This document shows positions 1,103-63,674 of a stretch of DNA of 64,000 nt, one piece after another; position 1 is the first letter of the stretch; each line of letters starts with the position of its first letter. The stretch is from Owenia fusiformis (lineage: Eukaryota), in contig CAIIXF020000001.1 of NCBI GenBank assembly GCA_903813345.2, positions 16,492,001 through 16,556,000 of the forward strand, read 5' to 3'. The notes under the pieces were generated by a model, which searched no databases, was not told where the DNA came from, and saw only the letters and a program-made list of their open reading frames with translations. Made by a program: the position numbers and the translations under genes.

Positions 1103-4100
1103 ATTGAGCATAAATTGTGTTGACAGTTGGGTAATCCTTCATGTCTGTCAACAGAACAGTGGACTTCACAACTACAAGTAAAAAAAACATAATTGTGCAA
1201 AATTAAAACAAATCCAACTAAAACATATAAACATTGACTGGAAACATACTATTGATACACAACTTTTTCCTTCTATATGCCATGTTATTTTCAAAGCATG
1301 GCTTCAAAATAACCATGGCTGAAACTCCTAAATTTAAATGTTCAAAAAGTATACCTAGAATATGAATGTATTTTTCTATATAATATTGCAATTTGATTGC
1401 TTAATTTTTAATGTTTGATTGACTTTGACTGTAAAATGGACTGTGCATGCAATATATGTATACCAAAAAAATATATACACTGTCTGACTATATATAAGAT
1501 GTCACTTACTGTTTGAGAAATTACCACCAACACTGGCCAAAACTGCTTGCATATTCTTAAATACCTAATAAAAATTAAATGATTACTCATGAGACGTAAA
1601 ACTCTTAACATTGCATAGTATATGTTTTGTAATGTAATGTATGTTACATTGCAATCTTGTGGCTTTGATTTTACATTGTAATTTATAACCTTTGGACTTT
1701 AGTATATATATAGTTATAATACCTTTATTGTACTGATATTATCATGAAAGTAAAGAAAACATAAACCAGTGTTATAAATTAATACATAAAAATATGATGG
1801 AATTGATCTACAAACACAATAACATAACTTGAAAACAGGAACAATGACAGGACATTGGAGGAACACTCTATGTTCCAGTGCACTAAGTTAATTTTGCAAA
1901 GCAAAGTACTGGATCATTCTCAATGTGATGAGTAAGACGCTTACCTGATGTGCCTCGGCCTCTACTCCACCCTCTGCCATCACCCCAGATGTTGGTTCAA
2001 GTCCTATCTGTCCAGACATATACAATGTCTGATCTCACGGGATGTCATCGCCTGATTTGGTCAATGTTAGGGAGCAGGTCGTTTTTACAATAAATTTCAA
2101 TATTTTCACACAAAATATTTTTTTGCTGAAAAACTGCTCATTCGCAGAGAAAATGTACTAGCACATGCAATGACAATGTCAATCACGCTTCTGTACGAAA
2201 TTCGGCGGAAGTCTTTTATAATCTAATACGAAGTTACTAAAAAAGGCGCGAACGCCCTACACTCAAAATGATCGTTTTTCCATTATAACTTTTTAACGTA
2301 ATTTAACGAAGGCTTCTAATTATTATCCAAGATAGTCTAAATACCGATTAAAATATTTCTTACTTCAAACAGATACGCCGTCTTTTATTCAATTTTTTTA
2401 AAAATAATAAAAAATAACTCTTGTCAATGTTAGGGAGCAGTCAATGTTAGGGAGCAAAATGATTGGGGCATGGGGCAAAATCCCAAAAGGTCCCACTAGG
2501 TCCCAAGCCATGTTAAGTCTATGGAGGTCCCAACTTGTCCCATTGGTGTATACCGGGCTTTAGAGTATCATTAGCAAGTGGTACACATATAACAGAGATC
2601 GGTTATATACTGCATTGTCTGAGTATTGACAAATTGAAGTATACGTGTAAAAATCTACTATCATACATGTAACTGCGCAATGAGCCCTTCATAGCGTTTG
2701 TGCCAGCTATCAGGTGATACCCGGTCGTAAAGATAAGTGCGAGACTAACTCTCTTACTTTAATACTACACTGGTGATCCACTCGATTACGCTGGTTACCA
2801 AAACGAACCGTTTTGGTAACAAAATGTCGGAACATCCGGAAGGTACGATTTTCTCGTTTCCTTATTTTACACGTTGTAGGCAGAATTCCCACGACATTTT
2901 TTAACACAAACGTGTAATAGTATTATATGTTTAAGAAATTCAGGTACATATTTGCGAACAATTAGTTCAGAAGACAACAGAATCGTCGATTTACTTCCTC
3001 ACTTAAGTTACATAAACGGTTTGGGTTAAAAGTGCAGATCTTAACTGTTTTTCGAAAAACCGTTTATGTAACTTAAGTGAGGAAGTAAATCGACGATTCT
3101 GTTGTCCTCTGAGCTATTTTTTCGCAAACATGTACATTTTCTAAAACATATGATACTGATGCACTTTGTGAGAAAAAACGTCGTGGGGATTCCGCCTACA
3201 ACGCGTGATTTAAGGAAAAAAGAAAAATCGTGCCTTCGACGTTCCGACATTTTGTTACCAAAACGGTTCGTTTTGGTAACCAGCGTAATCGAGTGGATCA
3301 CCAGTGTACTAGGAAAATATCAAATCATAGAACTGAAGGATGTCGGAGATTTCTCAAGCCTATATCAGTTCAGATAATTTATCATCCACAATTTAGGATT
3401 GTGAACTGATGACATCATCAAAAAGTGTATATAACGATACATCCATTCATTTACAGTTAGAGGTCAACGAATAAAGAAGGAATGGTTCGCATCTAAATAT
3501 TTCTAAAACGAACGTAAACAGGATTTAGCTGAAAATAAAAAATGCAAAATAACCTTTTCAATGATTTTCTTACAATTTTAACGCTTTCCTCCCCAAAGGG
3601 TATCAAATAATCATACAAACAAAATTGTTCAGTTTATAAATGCCTTACATATTTTAAATGGCCATTTGCTACATTTTTAATATTCTGATAAAATCATTTT
3701 GCTCCCTAACATTGACTGCTCCCTAACATTGACAAGAGTTATTTTTTATTATTTTTTAAAAAATTGAATAAAAGACGGCGTATCTGTTTGAAGTAAGAAA
3801 TATTTTAATCGGTATTTAGACTATCTTGGATAATAATTAGAAGCCTTCGTTAAATTACGTTAAAAAGTTATAATGGAAAAACGATCATTTTGAGTGTAGG
3901 GCGTTCGCGCCTTTTTTAGTAACTTCGTATTAGATTATAAAAGACTTCCGCCGAATTTCGTACAGAAGCGTGATTGACATTGTCATTGCATGTGCTAGTA
4001 CATTTTCTCTGCGAATGAGCAGTTTTTCAGTAAAAAAATATTTTGTGTGAAAATATTGAAATTTATTGTAAAAACGACCTGCTCCCTAACATTGACCAAA

Positions 4101-4865
4101 TCAGGCGATGACATCCCGTGGATCTACCATTACAGCTTGACTGAAAATAGTTTATTTTTATAAAAAAGAAACGATTCAGTGTCCGGGTAACGTAGTCAGA
4201 ATCAGAGAAACAAATGGGAAATAAAAAATATCAGTTATTTTCATTATTTTTTCTAGTCTTGACAAATGAATAGGACCAATCATCTTATGAGGAAAATCTG
4301 ACTGGCGTCCAGCGGTGCAACTAAATATAATTTCCAAGGAGGATTGGCTCCCAGAGTGCACCACCGATATTCTGTCCCATATATGGGTATGTCGTAATTC
4401 AAAATTCGAATTCAAACAGCCGCCATTTTGTTCACTTCAACATTTAAATCGTGAATTTTGGTCTTATTTCCAAACGAAAAATTCCAAAACTCACAAGAAA
4501 TGATCGAGATATTGGTTCGAATCTTTTGAACTGTTTATTTTGAATTTATAGTCGGTTTTAATTTCAGAAAATAACGACATTTCGACGTTTTCATTGTTGG
4601 AAAATATCGAGTTTCGATCCTGGGAGCCAATCCTCCTTGTATAATTTCTGTAAAATAACATGGGCGATAATTAGTAATGAAATGAAATTGAAATGAACTG
4701 TATCGTCAATTTAGCCTTTATATTCAAGTTCAGTGTTTTCCTCACATATACCCCGTCACCCATGCAATTTTAAGAAAGATTAAGATGAAGTTGTCATACT
4801 CACTTATAAGGGCCAACCGCCTTTGGGGCACCGATCGTGTTTATAATCCGTCTTATACACGCCAT
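1103..4865 (-). CDS. RIDA: RidA/UK114 (2-iminobutanoate/2-iminopropanoate deaminase), exons 1-4; exon 2 interrupted by a transposon; 3' exons not found in the window
   Basis: Exons: 4865-4804 (MACIRRIINTIGAPKAVGPY), 4140-4121 + 2030-1945 (NQAVMVD/QTLYMSGQIGLEPTSGVMAEGGVEAEAHQ), 1564-1510 (VFKNMQAVLASVGGNFSN), 1171-1103 (IVKSTVLLTDMKDYPTVNTIYAQ). All GT-AG with matching phases. GPYxQA, SGQIG and VKxTVLL motifs are typical of RidA. As assembled, read-through into the insertion hits TGA at codon 34. Confidence 0.93.
2036..4120. mobile_element. Non-autonomous DNA transposon, CAC...GTG termini, 429-bp TIRs, 5-bp TSD (Transib-like signature)
   Basis: TIRs 2036-2464 and 3692-4120 are near-perfect reverse complements (one mismatch noticed). 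GATCT is duplicated at 2031-2035 and 4121-4125. Removing the element plus one TSD restores the RidA frame. No transposase ORF. Confidence 0.92.
2768..3306. mobile_element. Nested foldback MITE, CACTGGTG...CACCAGTG, 5-bp TSD
   Basis: Imperfect palindrome over almost its whole length, with the outer ~65 bp perfectly inverted. TACTA duplicated at 2763-2767 and 3307-3311. Confidence 0.88.
4335..4639. mobile_element. 305-bp MITE with 9-bp TSD (Mutator-like), copy 1
   Basis: TIR CAAGGAGGATTGGCTCCCAG / CTGGGAGCCAATCCTCCTTG; TATAATTTC duplicated on both sides; inverted second copy at 56227-56530. Confidence 0.88.
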
Positions 4866-5006: not shown

Positions 5007-17641
<12,635 letters not shown>

Positions 17642-41200: not shown

Positions 41201-43078
41201 ATGTCGGTGGATGCTGGCTTACTGGTTGGCTGTAACACAATACCTTGAATGTGTTTAAAAGCCAGAGTAGAGCCAAATCAACATGAATTCGTATATGTCA
41301 ATTGATGTTGTATATTCTTTGTGGTCTGATTGAGGTTGAGGCAATATATGTTTGATAGGTGAGAGATGGGGATACCTCGAGAGAACGGCGTGTGTATTAT
41401 CGACACTAGGTGCAGATAAGAGCGGGAATATCGACCGGCAGCTGCTTATGATAATGTAGCTCCCATATTGGATTTTACAATATATTCGCTCCGTCTTGAA
41501 GTAGCTCTCTCGACTTTAACCTCATTTTATCAGTGTTTGAGCTGGAAAACAGCATAACAGAGGCAGCTACACCGGACCGGACATATTGGATATACACCCG
41601 GAATCAAGTAAGACCAAACAAGACAGGGATGGTTGCGTTCACGATGACTTAAGATGCTCGACCGTCTCTCTTCTGGCATACAATATTGCTTTTATTATTG
41701 CACAGCCTTCGAGTCCGCATAATTACATGTGCTATACGTTCTGTTATTAAAATCATCAATGATTTACCAATGACGGGTGCTATCTAACTATCATGTTTAT
41801 ATTATATCAAACGAGATGATAACAACGACTTGACAGTAGATGGTGATAATAAGCACAATGGTGACGAGGACATTCAAACAAGTGAAAAGATGTTTCTTCG
41901 GGAGAACATCCGCATCAACATCCCCCTATCTAAAATAATATCAGCTGTGTGGCACTAACAAGAAATAAAGGATTTACAAACTAATCCACGGAATGTTGCC
42001 GCGATCAATAAGGCCAAGAATGGAGCTATTCACTCAACCCAGTATTTTATGTTGATACGTTGCCTGGTGGTGATTAGGCGAGATCTGCTAAGTGTATTTT
42101 TATCACTTTATCCTGCAACTATTTCTCTTCAAGTGTACAATCGTACAGAGCGTCTCTAAAATCAAGGTCAGTAGTTAGATGAAGCACTGTTGATGCCGGT
42201 TCAGTGTTAACAGTGCCAGGAATGGATAAATACTCCAACTGTATAGATAGATAGATACACTCGCTCGGGAGAGCTTATACACAAATCTTTCTATACATGA
42301 CCATAATCCTAGACTTACATTGATAATTCTAAATCAATTCATCACCTGAACACAACTAGTGTTTCCTCAAGAATCCACTGTAGACGTATTGTCAGCGTGT
42401 CAGTTCTGATGAATTCACGCCACCGACATTTGCCACTTGGTCTCGAAAGTACAGAGCACGTTTTGGAAGTGTACGAGGAAACGGTAGATCGCTTACCCCG
42501 CTTGTTACAGGGTGTAGTAGAGACGGTCACGGCCTTAGTGTTATCAGACAGAGAGCTGACAAGGCACCTTTCTTCTGAGGTAAACAGTCAGTTTTTCTCA
42601 TTCTTCAATGCTGTCACCCAAAATATTATTTCACATTTTGCCACTAATCACATTGTTCAGCTATACAAGACGTAAGATGATTTGATTTAGATTTATTCGT
42701 TTTATGTAAAATCACCTAAAAGGAGGGCTGTAGCTGTTACCATGGGTCACGATTAGTCAAGTTACAAGCCTCTGTGACTCCCCCCCCCCCCCCACATCTA
42801 CTTGACTAAACACCTTCTTGAAATGGGGGGGCGTAGCTAGACTAGGTCATGATTATCATACATGTTTGTTATTTCCTCTACAGTCCATACAGTTCATAAT
42901 AGGCATCACATTCTGTTGTCTCTGCCATATTAGGTATACATAATCATAGATAAAGGTAGTCACGTGATCCCCTCTATTTGTATAACCCCAACTAGTTAAT
43001 TTATCAACTGAGATGAAAAATCTAAAAATGTTGGATTTCAAGATTTTTTCAGTCCCATGAATCCCATACATAACCTTA

Positions 43079-44008
43079 CATCTTGTTCCAAAAGTAACAG
43101 GACTGGTGCTGGCATTTTGTCAATTCTGCACCGGGTGGCTTCAAATTTCCCAAATTGTACATTGAGGTATTGCAACTACAATTGTAAAGTTTCAGAAAAA
43201 ATGATGTAATGGGGGTAGAGTTATGGTTTCTATAGTAACATGACATCACAATACCCGGGGCAACTTTTTTATGAAAATATAATATCTCTATCATTTTTAT
43301 ATTACTGACTAGAAAGTATCTAATTCACCTATTAAAATACAACATTTCCTGTTTGCTTTATTAGTTGCTTTGTTGTAATGGTGTTGCTATGTATCTCAGA
43401 TTCAAGTATGATTATCAATAGTAATATTCATTCAATTTTCTGGAATATCACTTTGTATAACAGTCTGCACAATTCATACCCTGCGTGCAGAGTCTAGTTA
43501 AACTACAGACGAAGCTCTCTTTTAAGAATTGAAGTAAAACGAATGCAAAGGGTACACAATTCATGGTTGGGCTTTTGAAAATACCCAATTTGAAGCCAGT
43601 CATCCACCTTAATAACGCGCCTGCCTCATGTGTTTGAGTCATGGATACAAAGTGCTACTCTTGTTCTGACCAATGAGGAGCATATTTTTCAAAGTAGAGG
43701 ATCGAGGAATATCTAATGATGTAAACCAAAATGTAATATTGTCACCAGTAGTTGCATTTCAACTTTTATATGGCATGCACAAAATGCTTAAAGTCTCTGT
43801 AACTTTCTATGAGGAATGTTGCCCCGGGTATTGTGATGTCATGTTACCATAGCAACCATAATTAACTCTACCCGAGTTTCATAATTTTTGTCGAAACTTT
43901 GCAGTATTAGTGACAATACATGAAAGTACATTATGTAAAATTTTGAAGACGATTGGTGCATATTAAACAAAATACTACCACCAGTCCTGTTACTTTTGGA
44001 ACACCCTG
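43079..44008. mobile_element. Tc1/mariner-type MITE
   Basis: TGTTCCAAAAGTAACAGGACTGGTG / CACCAGTCCTGTTACTTTTGGAACA inverted ends, TA flanks, inner pair CATGACATCACAATACCCGGGGCAAC / GTTGCCCCGGGTATTGTGATGTCATG. Confidence 0.75.
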
Positions 44009-44204
44009 TATACCTCTGGTGTTATTAGTTACTTGATATCCACGGTCAGGTCCTGAACGTGTAGCAATACTTGCATGTAATCTGAGAAAGATTCAATATA
44101 TTTTACGTCAATGATGTCTCTTTCTTTTCGATTCATTTTTACGTAGTAGACTAAGTAGAGTCACACATCAATTTATTAACGCTCTATTTAGGGTATTTTA
44201 TTTA

Positions 44205-54600: not shown

Positions 54601-57600
54601 TGTTGCCTGTAGAGAGAAAATAGGACAATTTTTCTGAGCTATCAAGGCAACATTTGGCTTAATATTCTTACAATTTGAAAATGGACTTTAACAATACTAT
54701 CCCACGTGAATCTACTTGTTGAGACTCGATCAACTTGAGTTCTTCTGAAAAAATGTGGATTTCAGCAAGGGTGTAATGACTTAATATGGGCTTAACATGC
54801 GTATACAATAATTGATTTAAAATCTGCATATATTCATGGGGACAGATAAAAATCTCAGATTCATGTGAGAGGGTATTGGCATAATCCATTTTCAATAGCA
54901 AGAATAAGGGTTCCTAAATAGGACATTAAGCTTAACTAAGGCCTTTTGAAGATTTTTGTTAGTTCTTACACGAAAAAGATAATCGCTCATTTTGGAAAAA
55001 TGATAATTCGTTTCACGTTGTAAGGACATACACATAAAATAAATATAACATGATATGATACAATGTATTGTCCGTTCTAATCAACGTTGACCAATATAAT
55101 AACTATTTGATAAAAACGACATTCTTATATATTCTGTGGCTGTGTATATATTGTACATTCATGCATATTTGCTTTTATTCCAGTTTAACCGTACGAAATG
55201 GTGATGAAAACAAATCTTCAAAAGATTCAAAGTTAGAAAATATAAATGAAAAGGACGACCCGTAAGTTTGTCACATTATTTTATACTGTATAACTACGCA
55301 TATACGAGGGTTGTCCCAGAAGTAATGCACTATATGCTCTAACTTTCTTTAATAGTCTTCAATTCAACTGAAATTTGTGTACTATAGATTTGTGTGTAGT
55401 ATATAACAATTGAAGTTTTATCTCTTATATCCTGAAGTCTAAGTCTATTAAGTCTTTAGGGGTGGGCGGGGCAGTATAACTACAATTATGAGGTGGCAGA
55501 AGAGATTTTAAAAGTGATGACTGGACCCTGGATGACAACTCCAAACATGGGAGACAAAAGCTCCACAAGTCAAAGTGGAAGAAATTGCTAAGAGTGTTTA
55601 ACCCGACAGGCATTAAAAGTACATAACATGCAAAGGGCAATATTTTGAGAAAATGTGAAATGGAACACTGTGCAACATACATACATTAAATCTAGGCTGT
55701 CCTCATAGTAATCTAGTATCTTAAAATGTATTTTTGAGCATACTTATTACAGCTACACAAAATGGTATTTGTTGATTAATTATTTCATATTTTCAATTTG
55801 TTATTCCTTTTGACGTTACATTTTAACCTGCCCCACCCTACCCAAACTCACCAACTTGATTTTATTATAACATCAATATAGTTTTATCAGTCAACATGAA
55901 AATTTGTAGAATAATCAAGATGTCTTTAAGGGACATTTACTGAAAATTTCATGGAAAAATAGTACAATAATGTCATTTCGAATGGCAATATAGTGAAATA
56001 TTTGACCGAAGGTCGAAGGCCCAAGGTTCAATATTTCACTATATTGCCCGCAGAAATGACGTTATTAGTATTATTACCACCATTAATGACCAGGGCTGAA
56101 ATAATACGAAAATCTTACGCACTGAACGATATCTAATTTCCCGGGGAAAATTGCCGGTCATTAATTGCATTATTGACCGCAATTATGGACTGCCATTATG
56201 ACGTCACATATTGCTCAGGTCGATATCAAGGAGGATTGGCTCCCAGAATCGAAGTCGATATTTTCCAACAATGAAAACGCCGAGATGTCGTTATTTTCTG
56301 AAATTATAACCGATTATAAATTCAAAATAAACAGTTCAAAAGATTCGAACCAATATCTCGATCATTTCCTGTGAGTTTTGGAATTTTTCGTTAGGAAATA
56401 AGACCAAAATTCACGATTCAAATGTTGAAGTGAACAAAATGGCGGCTGTTGGAATTCAAATTTTGTAGCACGACATGCCCATATATGGGACAGAATATCG
56501 ATGTTGCACTCTGGGAGCCAATCCTCCTTGGGTCGATATAGTAAAATGAATGCCTTCTAAACTAGCATTAAAACCCCTAGAACAGGCCCGGCAAGGTGGT
56601 AATAATATCAATTATTGATAAAGTTAGAGCATATAGTGCATTACTTCTGGGACAACCCTCGTACTCAAATTAACACATCGTCTTCCTACATAATATGTTT
56701 ATCTCATCCCGTATGTATATACTGCAATAGTGAATTATGAGTAATACATATTCATGTGTGGGTGGTGCGTGGCAAAGGGGACCAGCATTTCATGCATTGT
56801 AATTTATTACCATATAGAAATCATCCTCCGATCACAGGGCTTCATGATCCAGAATATTTTCTGAAGGTACGGATTCTGGACACCGGCTTAGGAGGATGTA
56901 TAAGAAACAGTGGATACCGTTAATGCACGTGAAATATTAAGTTATTATAATGTTTCGCTTGTTGCTTTCCAGGCCGACATTAGATGAGATAAAGTCATGG
57001 TCAGATTCATTTGACAAACTAATGACTTGTCGAGGTAAGAATTAAAACCTTTTAAACCATTTTAAAGGTATTATTACTGTTTTTACAATTTTATCCTGAG
57101 AACGGAATTTTATATTTACCTAGAATAAGTAATAAGTTTTGCTATATATGAATGAAGATTATTGGAATTATTTTGTTGTTGACGTCAGATATAGTATATA
57201 TCATGGACCCCAATCCTCTGTATCCAGCACCAACAAAGTATTATATTCTTGAACATGTTCACCAGGCTGGATTATTAAATCTTTACAAAATAAAAGTTAT
57301 GTGAAAAATTGTTTTAGTAATTTATTATATTGTTGTCAGCGTTATAAACATTCCTTTATTCCAGAATATAATTTTAACGACAGTAGTCAGTTCTAAATAA
57401 TGTATTCTTTCAGGAGGGAGAAAATCATTTAGAGAATTTCTACGGTCGGAATATAGTGAAGAGAACATGCTATTCTGGCTCGCTTGTGAGGAGCTTAAGA
57501 GGCACGACAACCCAGAAGTCGTGGAAGAAAAGGCTCGAATCATTTATGAAGATTACATTTCAATATTATCACCAAAAGAGGTACAGAAAATACACATATT

Positions 57601-62150: not shown

Positions 62151-62192
62151 ATACAATTTGTGATACATTCATGGCCGACCATATACAATGTA

Positions 62193-63288
62193 CGAGGGGT
62201 GATCAATAAGTAATGGACGCTTTTTTACACAGATACTTTTTATAGACCAATCCCTTTGATTTTCCTACCAGTGATACATCATTCAATTATCTATCAACTC
62301 TGAAGATTTGAAGACAAAATATCTAATACAGGTTGATATATCCTTATGTCTGTGAAGGAGGTACAGGTACCCCAGGACCGACATTTACGTCACATATTCT
62401 GAAGCTATTTTAGCTTGTTTAACATGCAGTGCAGTTGAATGCAGGCTGTACAAAACAAACCATAATGCTCATGAATTACCCCCATTTTGTTTTGCCATAG
62501 TTGATTTTAAATATTTTATCATCACTATGTGGTATTCATGTCATATTCATTCCACAGGGCACTCTATATAGGTTCCATAAAGTGCTACATGTACACAATT
62601 CCTCATCCTCTTAACTCAAGATTGTGAGACAAGGCTGAATCCATTCTCTGACATGGTAGCAAGATGCAGTTGCATGGGTTGTTTTATCATGTTTATTTCA
62701 TCAATGTCAATAAACCTACATCCTTTCTCTATAGAAATAAGTAGTATAGAAATTAACAAGTCACATGTGAGCAGATCTGGACAATATGGTGCATTGGCCA
62801 AGGGCTCGATTTTGAGTTCCAGGGATATTGTTTTCCGAACATTTTGAGATCTGTTGGCAGGTGCATTGTCCATATGGAGTAGGGTGTTCCCTTCTCTCAC
62901 CACCCCTTTCTTCCACAATGCTTTCTCAAATTGACCTGCAAACCCCTTCCATACAACACTCTGACATCACAATACTTTCTGTTTATGTGTTACCAGTCAG
63001 CAAAAAATTTCAAACAACACAACACTTGTTGCACATAAAAAGTTCCAATCTAACTGAAATTTACCAAACTGGCTAAAAACTGAATATGTGACGTAAATGT
63101 CGGTCCCGGGGTACCCGTACCTCCTTCACGGAAATAAGGATATATCAATAAGTATTATATATTTTGTCTTCAAATCTTCAGAATTGATAGATAATTGAAT
63201 GATGTATCACTGGTAGGAAAATCAGAGGGATTGGTCTATAAAAAGTATCTGTGTAAAAAAGCGTCCATTACTTATTGATCACCCCTCG
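62193..63288 (-). mobile_element. Internally deleted mariner with ~207-bp TIRs and a transposase remnant
   Basis: TA|CGAGGGGTGATCAATAAGT...ACTTATTGATCACCCCTCG|TA; TIRs ~62193-62399 and ~63082-63288; ORF 62918-62616 has LLHMDNAPAN and APYCPDLLTCDL, matching the mariner HDNAPAH and YSPDLAPCD motifs. Confidence 0.9.
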
Positions 63289-63674
63289 TATTACATGAGC
63301 ATAATATGTGTTATATTAGCACGTATTGTGACCAAACCTCGCTGTTATTAATAAGTCTAGGATTATGGGCAATCTCTCTTTTGACCTAGTGAATGTTTTA
63401 GCCAATATGATTTCAACTCTATATATTGTCATCAATGTCCGACTTTGTATTCTAGCGTAGATACATGTATGTCTGTCATGTTTTATATAATGGTTAATTT
63501 ATTGTTACACAATCCATGTATTTATATTTATATTTCAATTGTTTCAATGACATGTGTACGTTTTGTTTAGATTTAAACATCCATACGGTTAACACGTATA
63601 TTAATGTGAAATAAAAAAGACAAAAATATCTATACAAAAGTTTACTTTTAAATTATTTTCTAATTTCAAAAATA

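Follow-up and report, generated by a model that had tools for sequence, protein, structure and literature searches.

A polymorphic transposon insertion, probably mobilized by a P-like transposase with a built-in exonuclease, interrupts RidA exon 2 in Owenia fusiformis

In a 64,000-nucleotide (nt) stretch of the Owenia fusiformis genome (hereafter the window; assembly GCA_903813345.2, contig CAIIXF020000001.1, positions 16,492,001 to 16,556,000), the second coding exon of the gene for RidA is interrupted by a non-autonomous DNA transposon of 2,085 bp (2036-4120). The insertion is a polymorphic allele, not a fixed gene loss, because an empty site was found in every read set compared. Taken as a whole, we consider it likely that this is a trans-mobilized insertion that produced a probably null allele of RidA, and that the mobilizing enzyme was a P-like transposase carrying a YqaJ-type exonuclease. 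Coordinates below are positions in the window unless another contig is named, and the assembly searched comprises 499.5 megabases (Mb).

RidA lies on the minus strand and has six coding exons, four inside the window and two to its left. The coding part of exon 1 (4804-4865, with the ATG at 4865) is followed by exon 2, which is divided into a 15-nt 5' piece with an intact AG acceptor (4126-4140) and a 3' piece of 91 nt, counting one target duplication, with an intact GT donor (1945-2035). Exon 3 (55 nt, 1510-1564) and exon 4 (69 nt, 1103-1171) have AG/GT borders, and exons 5 and 6 are intact at about G000:C1:16491185-16491240 and 16490120-16490176. Together the two pieces make a 106-nt exon 2, and excision of the element with one GATCT copy restores a RidA open reading frame (ORF) of 134 amino acids. 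These results agree with a preliminary description of this DNA, which had reported an exon split by a 2,085-bp element with a GATCT duplication, an in-frame 106-nt exon upon excision, and no decay of the other exons; the undecayed state extends to the two exons outside the window.

The restored protein aligns with human RidA without a gap over 129 residues (E 3e-47), and its R106, in a P-A-R motif, aligns with an arginine of human RidA that we take to be the active-site arginine. P0155 (CAH1773345.1), the protein publicly listed for this contig, matches the excised 134-residue product letter for letter and scores 161.8 bits against TIGR00004 (cut-off 106.25). In these features the protein resembles RIDA/UK114 (PDB 1oni and 9n80), from which the assembled O. 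fusiformis allele differs in being interrupted. At codon 21, which is split by intron 1 (4804/4140), the residues read G-P-Y-N here and G-P-Y-S in human RidA.

Read-through of the interrupted gene gives 33 residues ending in VMVDPRDVIA, with a premature TGA at codon 34 that lies within the element (4101-4103, minus strand), as the preliminary description had it. Skipping of exon 2 shifts the frame and yields a 40-residue out-of-frame product. Given the early stop in the one case and the lost frame in the other, the insertion allele most likely yields no functional RidA, which is the loss of function proposed earlier, judged here from the predicted products. The search for a second RidA gene that had been suggested gave none in the assembly with exon-2 and whole-protein queries, although a distant paralogue could escape this exon-by-exon approach. 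A genome search with PF01042 matched only a longer, multi-exon gene with a Rid fold (L032/L033, G000:C8 near 27.03 Mb) and missed the small RidA exons. That gene was rejected as a RidA paralogue since neither the exon-2 nor the whole-protein search recovered it; its PF01042 frames resemble what we take to be the C terminus of a diphthine-ammonia ligase.

The inserted DNA has all of the features of a cut-and-paste transposon with terminal inverted repeats, namely inverted ends, a duplication of fixed length, and dispersed copies. It begins CACGG and ends CCGTG, and it is flanked by the 5-bp target duplication GATCT (2031-2035 and 4121-4125). Its 429-bp inverted repeats (2036-2464 on the plus strand and 3692-4120 on the minus strand) differ at two positions (90 and 364 from the end) and are thus near-perfect and not perfect. 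A private internal deletion junction lies directly behind the left repeat, as expected of an internally deleted family member. The element is also composite: a palindromic mini-element of 539 bp with CACTGG ends and perfect 66-bp inverted ends (2768-3306) is nested in it, between copies of its own 5-bp duplication TACTA (2763-2767 and 3307-3311). The 24-nt end of this mini-element matches the assembly exactly at 1,189 places, and two other paired copies of its family are also flanked by 5-bp duplications. The other fetched copies of the RidA-element family lack it, so the mini-element either arrived after the insertion into RidA or came with a donor that is absent from the assembly.

Contigs from four of 20 listed runs (X1-X4) were compared with the window over positions 900-2110, which cover the left junction. 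In all four, a contig matches to exactly position 2035, the last base common to the full and empty alleles, and then continues into letters that are not those of the element (32 letters in X1, 21 in X2, 267 in X3, and 93 in X4). Run X1 contains pieces with no difference from the window and, in addition, a second haplotype. The earlier suggestion of a polymorphic insertion, to be checked by looking for an empty allele, is borne out by these contigs, and a fixed gene loss or pseudogene is ruled out by the empty allele and the intact exons. In the assembled animal, the insertion probably lies opposite an intact allele, that is, in the heterozygous state. The contigs of X4, a run only guessed to be RNA, are unspliced, and no spliced joints were present in X1-X4. 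The introns within 900-2035 carry many substitutions and insertions or deletions per kilobase (kb) in X2 and X3; exon 2 showed one substitution between runs among the rows listed.

The intact public protein has to be reconciled with the interrupted DNA on the same contig. Exact removal of the element is possible in six registers, and none has GT-AG, GC-AG, or AT-AC ends, so precise canonical splicing-out was rejected. Because the protein is intact and no exact register is a canonical intron, the simplest reading is that the annotation hides the insertion as a false intron, derived from transcripts of the empty allele that were aligned across the element. The preliminary description had anticipated that automated annotation would mis-model the gene, and this part of it apparently holds; CAH1773345.1 is not truncated, and the error runs in the opposite direction, masking the break instead of shortening the gene.

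The element in RidA belongs to a dispersed family. A search for its exact 25-nt end gave 99 occurrences in the assembly and none for the reversed control sequence, and an exact 5-bp duplication flanks each of the 47 other copies fetched with both ends (the centre base being A or T in 45 of them). The ends of these copies differ from those of the RidA copy by a mean of 0.7% (91 of the 96 ends aligning over >380 bp), and its nearest relatives lie 2-3 substitutions away over 1,110 bp (2 plus a single gap for the nearest copies). This similarity marks the family as young and recently mobile. The preliminary description had called the insertion very recent; the near-identical relatives favor that view, and the nested mini-element, which may have been a later arrival, is a caveat to it. 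Copies range from 0.6 to 4.7 kb and are internally deleted forms of one master, with 44 different junctions among 48 copies, so that a private deletion such as that of the RidA copy is typical of the family.

The RidA element itself holds none of a P-like transposase core, and what the longer copies retain points to the enzyme that moved the family. The longest copies keep an ORF with C2H2 zinc fingers, and the longer ones contain a 60-residue frame that aligns with positions 1409-1461, at the C-terminal end, of a profile of the transposase derived from 71 homologues (E 8e-5); the same frame also finds more distant loci in the genome. We inspected 10 loci at which the transposase gene is present whole or in large part. 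At six of them (C7:33637889-33648080, C3:22030556-22041577, C2:1316131-1322720, C7:16362885-16373950, G000:C5:4840270-4851071, and C6:5362210-5371450) there are inverted ends and a 5-bp duplication, with ends that begin CAC (CAA at one end), and all six contain a zinc-finger ORF. The ends of the first are 67% identical to those of the RidA element. The element at C5 has an open frame of 1,467 residues with all motifs and is apparently a candidate intact element. Because the RidA-element family keeps a tail of the gene and has its kind of ends and its partner gene in common with these loci, we infer that it was moved by an enzyme of this type.

Relatives of this transposase are numerous, forming at least 1,855 clusters at the 50%-cluster level (E≤0.001), one of them labelled Mytilus. 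Among 71 long homologues, the catalytic residues are conserved where they could be scored: the first aspartate in 56/57, the second in 68/71, the DxxH motif in 69/69, and the glutamate in 63/64. The first two catalytic aspartates are separated by a coiled coil and a YqaJ (lambda-exonuclease) domain, and the E-D-ExK nuclease residues of the latter are likewise conserved. The Pfam YqaJ model scores above its cut-off in 18 of 30 proteins scanned (5/6 and 13/24), and in these proteins neither a THAP domain nor a RAG1 Pfam match was found, some of the N termini being possibly incomplete gene calls.

Sequence searches of solved structures missed P transposase, and one found lambda exonucleases (E 0.006). 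The fold predicted for the homologue P0018 (predicted local distance difference test score, pLDDT, 82.5) has P transposase 6p5a as its best match (Z 28.2, 383 residues aligned, root mean square deviation 3.2; Foldseek E 7e-5), and residues 272-487 match lambda-type exonucleases (Z 13). The conserved residues and the model together show the family to consist of P-element-like DDE transposases with a built-in exonuclease whose catalytic residues are intact and without a detected THAP domain.

Among known systems, the P superfamily (Drosophila P, 6p5a/6pe2; 1360; Galileo; THAP9) has in common with the full-length relatives the split RNase H core of D, D, DxxH, and E with a helical insertion. Copies with many different internal deletions occur in both, and the nearest Atlas clusters are P/THAP9-like (scores under 0.9, a lead only). 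Long inverted ends are also present in Galileo. Unlike P superfamily proteins, none of the 30 proteins described above has an N-terminal THAP domain; the family places a coiled coil and a lambda-exonuclease between the first and second aspartates, and a separate gene encodes C2H2 zinc fingers. The duplication also differs: all 47 copies and the six transposase-bearing relatives have 5 bp, as opposed to the 8 bp of P and 7 bp of 1360 and Galileo given in PMC3698922 and PMC7776569. For P transposase itself, the latter describes a 17-nt staggered cut at each end and a GTP cofactor (PMC7776569).

Two other systems combine a transposon with such a nuclease. KolobokE has a DDD/E transposase with C/DxxH and a nuclease resembling lambda exonuclease that lies downstream of the transposase domain (PMC9587614). 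The present family is alike in having a DxxH transposase and a nuclease and unlike in carrying the nuclease inside the core, between the first two aspartates. The Kolobok target is TTAA, whereas the 5-bp duplications found here are variable. ISL2EU, of the PHIS superfamily, also encodes a YqaJ exonuclease, which lies in a separate ORF of an element with an AT duplication and GG ends (PMC4482050), none of which is seen here. No description of the present architecture was found in a literature search outside which most subscription papers, Repbase Reports, and supplements lay, so that a Repbase entry may exist.

The non-autonomous element was inserted at a 5-bp staggered cut in the target, and we propose that a full-length master, not in the assembly, supplied the transposase in trans. 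The zinc-finger protein would bind the ends, replacing the THAP domain, and the DDE core would cut and integrate as in P. The exonuclease might then trim 5' strands at the breaks, leaving 3' single-stranded ends on the element, where P relies on its 17-nt staggered cut, or at the donor site. Interrupted copy-back repair yields deletion copies, and resection of the donor site could lead by this route to the many different internal deletions of the family, a step about which we have slightly more doubt than confidence. Many different internal deletions are known for P itself, and the deletion pattern therefore does not single out the exonuclease. The broader proposal, that this is an undescribed and still active group of transposons in animals, of roughly superfamily rank, with a P core, an exonuclease that shapes 3' ends and deletions, a zinc-finger protein substituting for THAP, and 5-bp duplications beside ends of the CAC type, is advanced tentatively and we hold it to be somewhat doubtful.

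Several observations weigh against the explanation preferred here. On the enzyme side, an intact master with the ends of the RidA element was not found in the assembly, and the closest long relative (the one with 67% end identity) is itself deleted. The zinc-finger gene is divergently oriented in the RidA family and this closest relative and convergent with the transposase in the five others. Four of the 10 transposase loci had no ends inside the 20 kb fetched, and ends were present in 0 of 7 short metagenome contigs. The Pfam P-type RNase H model reaches its cut-off in one of 24 long homologues, and P0018, the protein modeled, is not from Owenia. On the side of the allele, the letters past 2035 are presumed to be the 5' piece of exon 2 from comparison at one junction, and no contig among the pieces listed for X1-X4 bridges the insertion junction, an absence that contigs cannot establish. 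The depth of the empty-site contig in X1 (1.06-1.11 of neighboring diploid depth) fits a homozygous empty site slightly better than a heterozygote (1.17-1.23) without separating the two. Finally, there are weak cryptic splice pairs in frame whose use would remove just 3 or 5 residues.

The depth of X1 bears on the possibility of a mosaic event, germline or somatic, or of another animal's allele, with both chromosomes of the main source animal intact. X1 has the window haplotype (0 differences in most pieces), its empty-site contig is near full diploid depth, no junction contig is among its listed pieces, and the transposon family is very young. However, the depth ratios of X2 and X3 scatter as widely (about 0.98 and 1.17 of their neighbors), and assemblers lose the junctions of high-copy repeats, X1 having only seven loose-end contigs listed compared with about 100 ends in the assembly. 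A minority event is also rarely kept in a consensus, and the nested mini-element suggests some age; we regard this origin as unlikely. The lack of read-level support for the junction would also fit an assembly artefact in which a repeat was mis-joined into the exon. This is hardly credible, as the ends and the 5-bp duplication are exact, like those of the 47 other copies, and the deletion junction and nested element occur in none of 48 other loci compared, so the insert does not duplicate another locus of the assembly.

The cryptic splice pairs raise the prospect of rescue at the RNA level, in which the insertion would be tolerated through splicing-out of the element, either by a GT-AG intron that costs V-D-Q or V-M-V-D-Q or exactly, by an AT-AG intron whose removal is aided when the 429-nt arms pair. 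With the AG at 2028, donors at 4133 or 4127 would give proteins of 129 and 131 residues, one exact register does read AT..AG, and the protein in the annotation is intact. That protein is accounted for by transcripts from the empty allele, all exact registers are non-canonical, the acceptor lacks a pyrimidine tract, and the upstream piece of exon would be just 7-13 nt. The residues lost would come from a turn that aligns gaplessly to human RidA, and we judge such rescue highly improbable.

It is very unlikely, in turn, that the family owes its movement to a Transib/RAG-like transposase and that the P-like gene tail is a passenger. Transib and RAG-like transposons have CAC ends and 5-bp duplications, exactly what is found here, and the P0018 model also matches the folds of Transib (HzTransib 6pqx, Z 12.3) and RAG1 (Z about 11). 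These matches are far weaker than that to P (Z 28.2), and the DxxH motif and exonuclease insert set the present enzyme apart from that group. Six elements with the P-like transposase gene or pieces of it share such ends and 5-bp duplications, and the four longest family copies contained no Transib-like frame. The P-like enzyme with its YqaJ domain thus remains our preferred mobilizer.

Other candidates and loci were examined in the course of this work. Nine loci with apparently unpaired ends proved to be copies altered at one end, truncated forms, or short fragments, and none is a master. Long ORFs beside unpaired ends (helicase-like at L049 and transposase-like at L050) were set aside as lying outside the element or having no tie to it; the 671-residue frame at L049 (6355-8370; G000:C8 near 37.96 Mb), presumably with PIF1-like helicase motifs, adjoins a 128-bp piece of element end and a minisatellite, without a link to the family. 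A Polinton-like identity was rejected because no such genes occur in the copies read, and C9:24.06 Mb and C4:16.15 Mb, with fragment similarity only, yielded no element. Family copies at L035, L037, L040, L044, and L047 carry private nested insertions of unrelated small elements, and so copies of this family gather secondary insertions despite its youth.

Among the transposase loci, two on G000:C11 have long open frames, of 1,438 residues at L128/L129 (near 10.095 Mb) and 1,221 residues at L123 (near 19.85 Mb), with no inverted ends in the 20 kb fetched at either place; these frames belong either to larger elements or to genes kept by the host. In one metagenome locus, L117, zinc-finger motifs face the transposase. 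The 11-kb CAC-ended element on C3 (L073/L074, G000:C3:22027700-22047599) has a reverse-transcriptase-like frame on one side and RNase H-like and tyrosine-recombinase-like frames on the other, its host apparently being what we assume, from motifs, to be a DIRS/Ngaro-type retrotransposon.

Within the window, a multi-exon gene on the minus strand (7450-16608) ends just upstream of RidA exon 1 and resembles what we take, from its motifs, to be a maltase-glucoamylase/GH31 alpha-glucosidase with trefoil-like Cys-rich repeats. Further elements with inverted repeats occupy intronic or intergenic positions at 4322-4652, 7132-7713, 43077-44010, 55303-56663, and 62191-63290. The arms of 55303-56663 (44 bp, 100% complementary) and of 62191-63290 (209 bp, 95%) are highly complementary, which points to other young families in the window.

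In itself the RidA allele is unremarkable, a single deleterious insertion in a marine animal with much polymorphism. It provides a natural, probably null allele of a single-copy metabolite-repair enzyme that can be typed by the polymerase chain reaction; in yeast, loss of the RidA protein Mmf1p leads to loss of mitochondrial DNA (PMC5829821). The locus is also a warning that a gene set may show a protein as intact although its gene is interrupted in the reference. For a protein family that has had no name, the present results add ends, a 5-bp footprint, a partner gene, evidence of recent movement, and a candidate intact element. The combination of a P-type core with Transib-type ends and duplication means that classification by ends would mislead. 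The purpose of the exonucleases carried by eukaryotic transposons such as ISL2EU and KolobokE would, in this family, become testable within one polypeptide.

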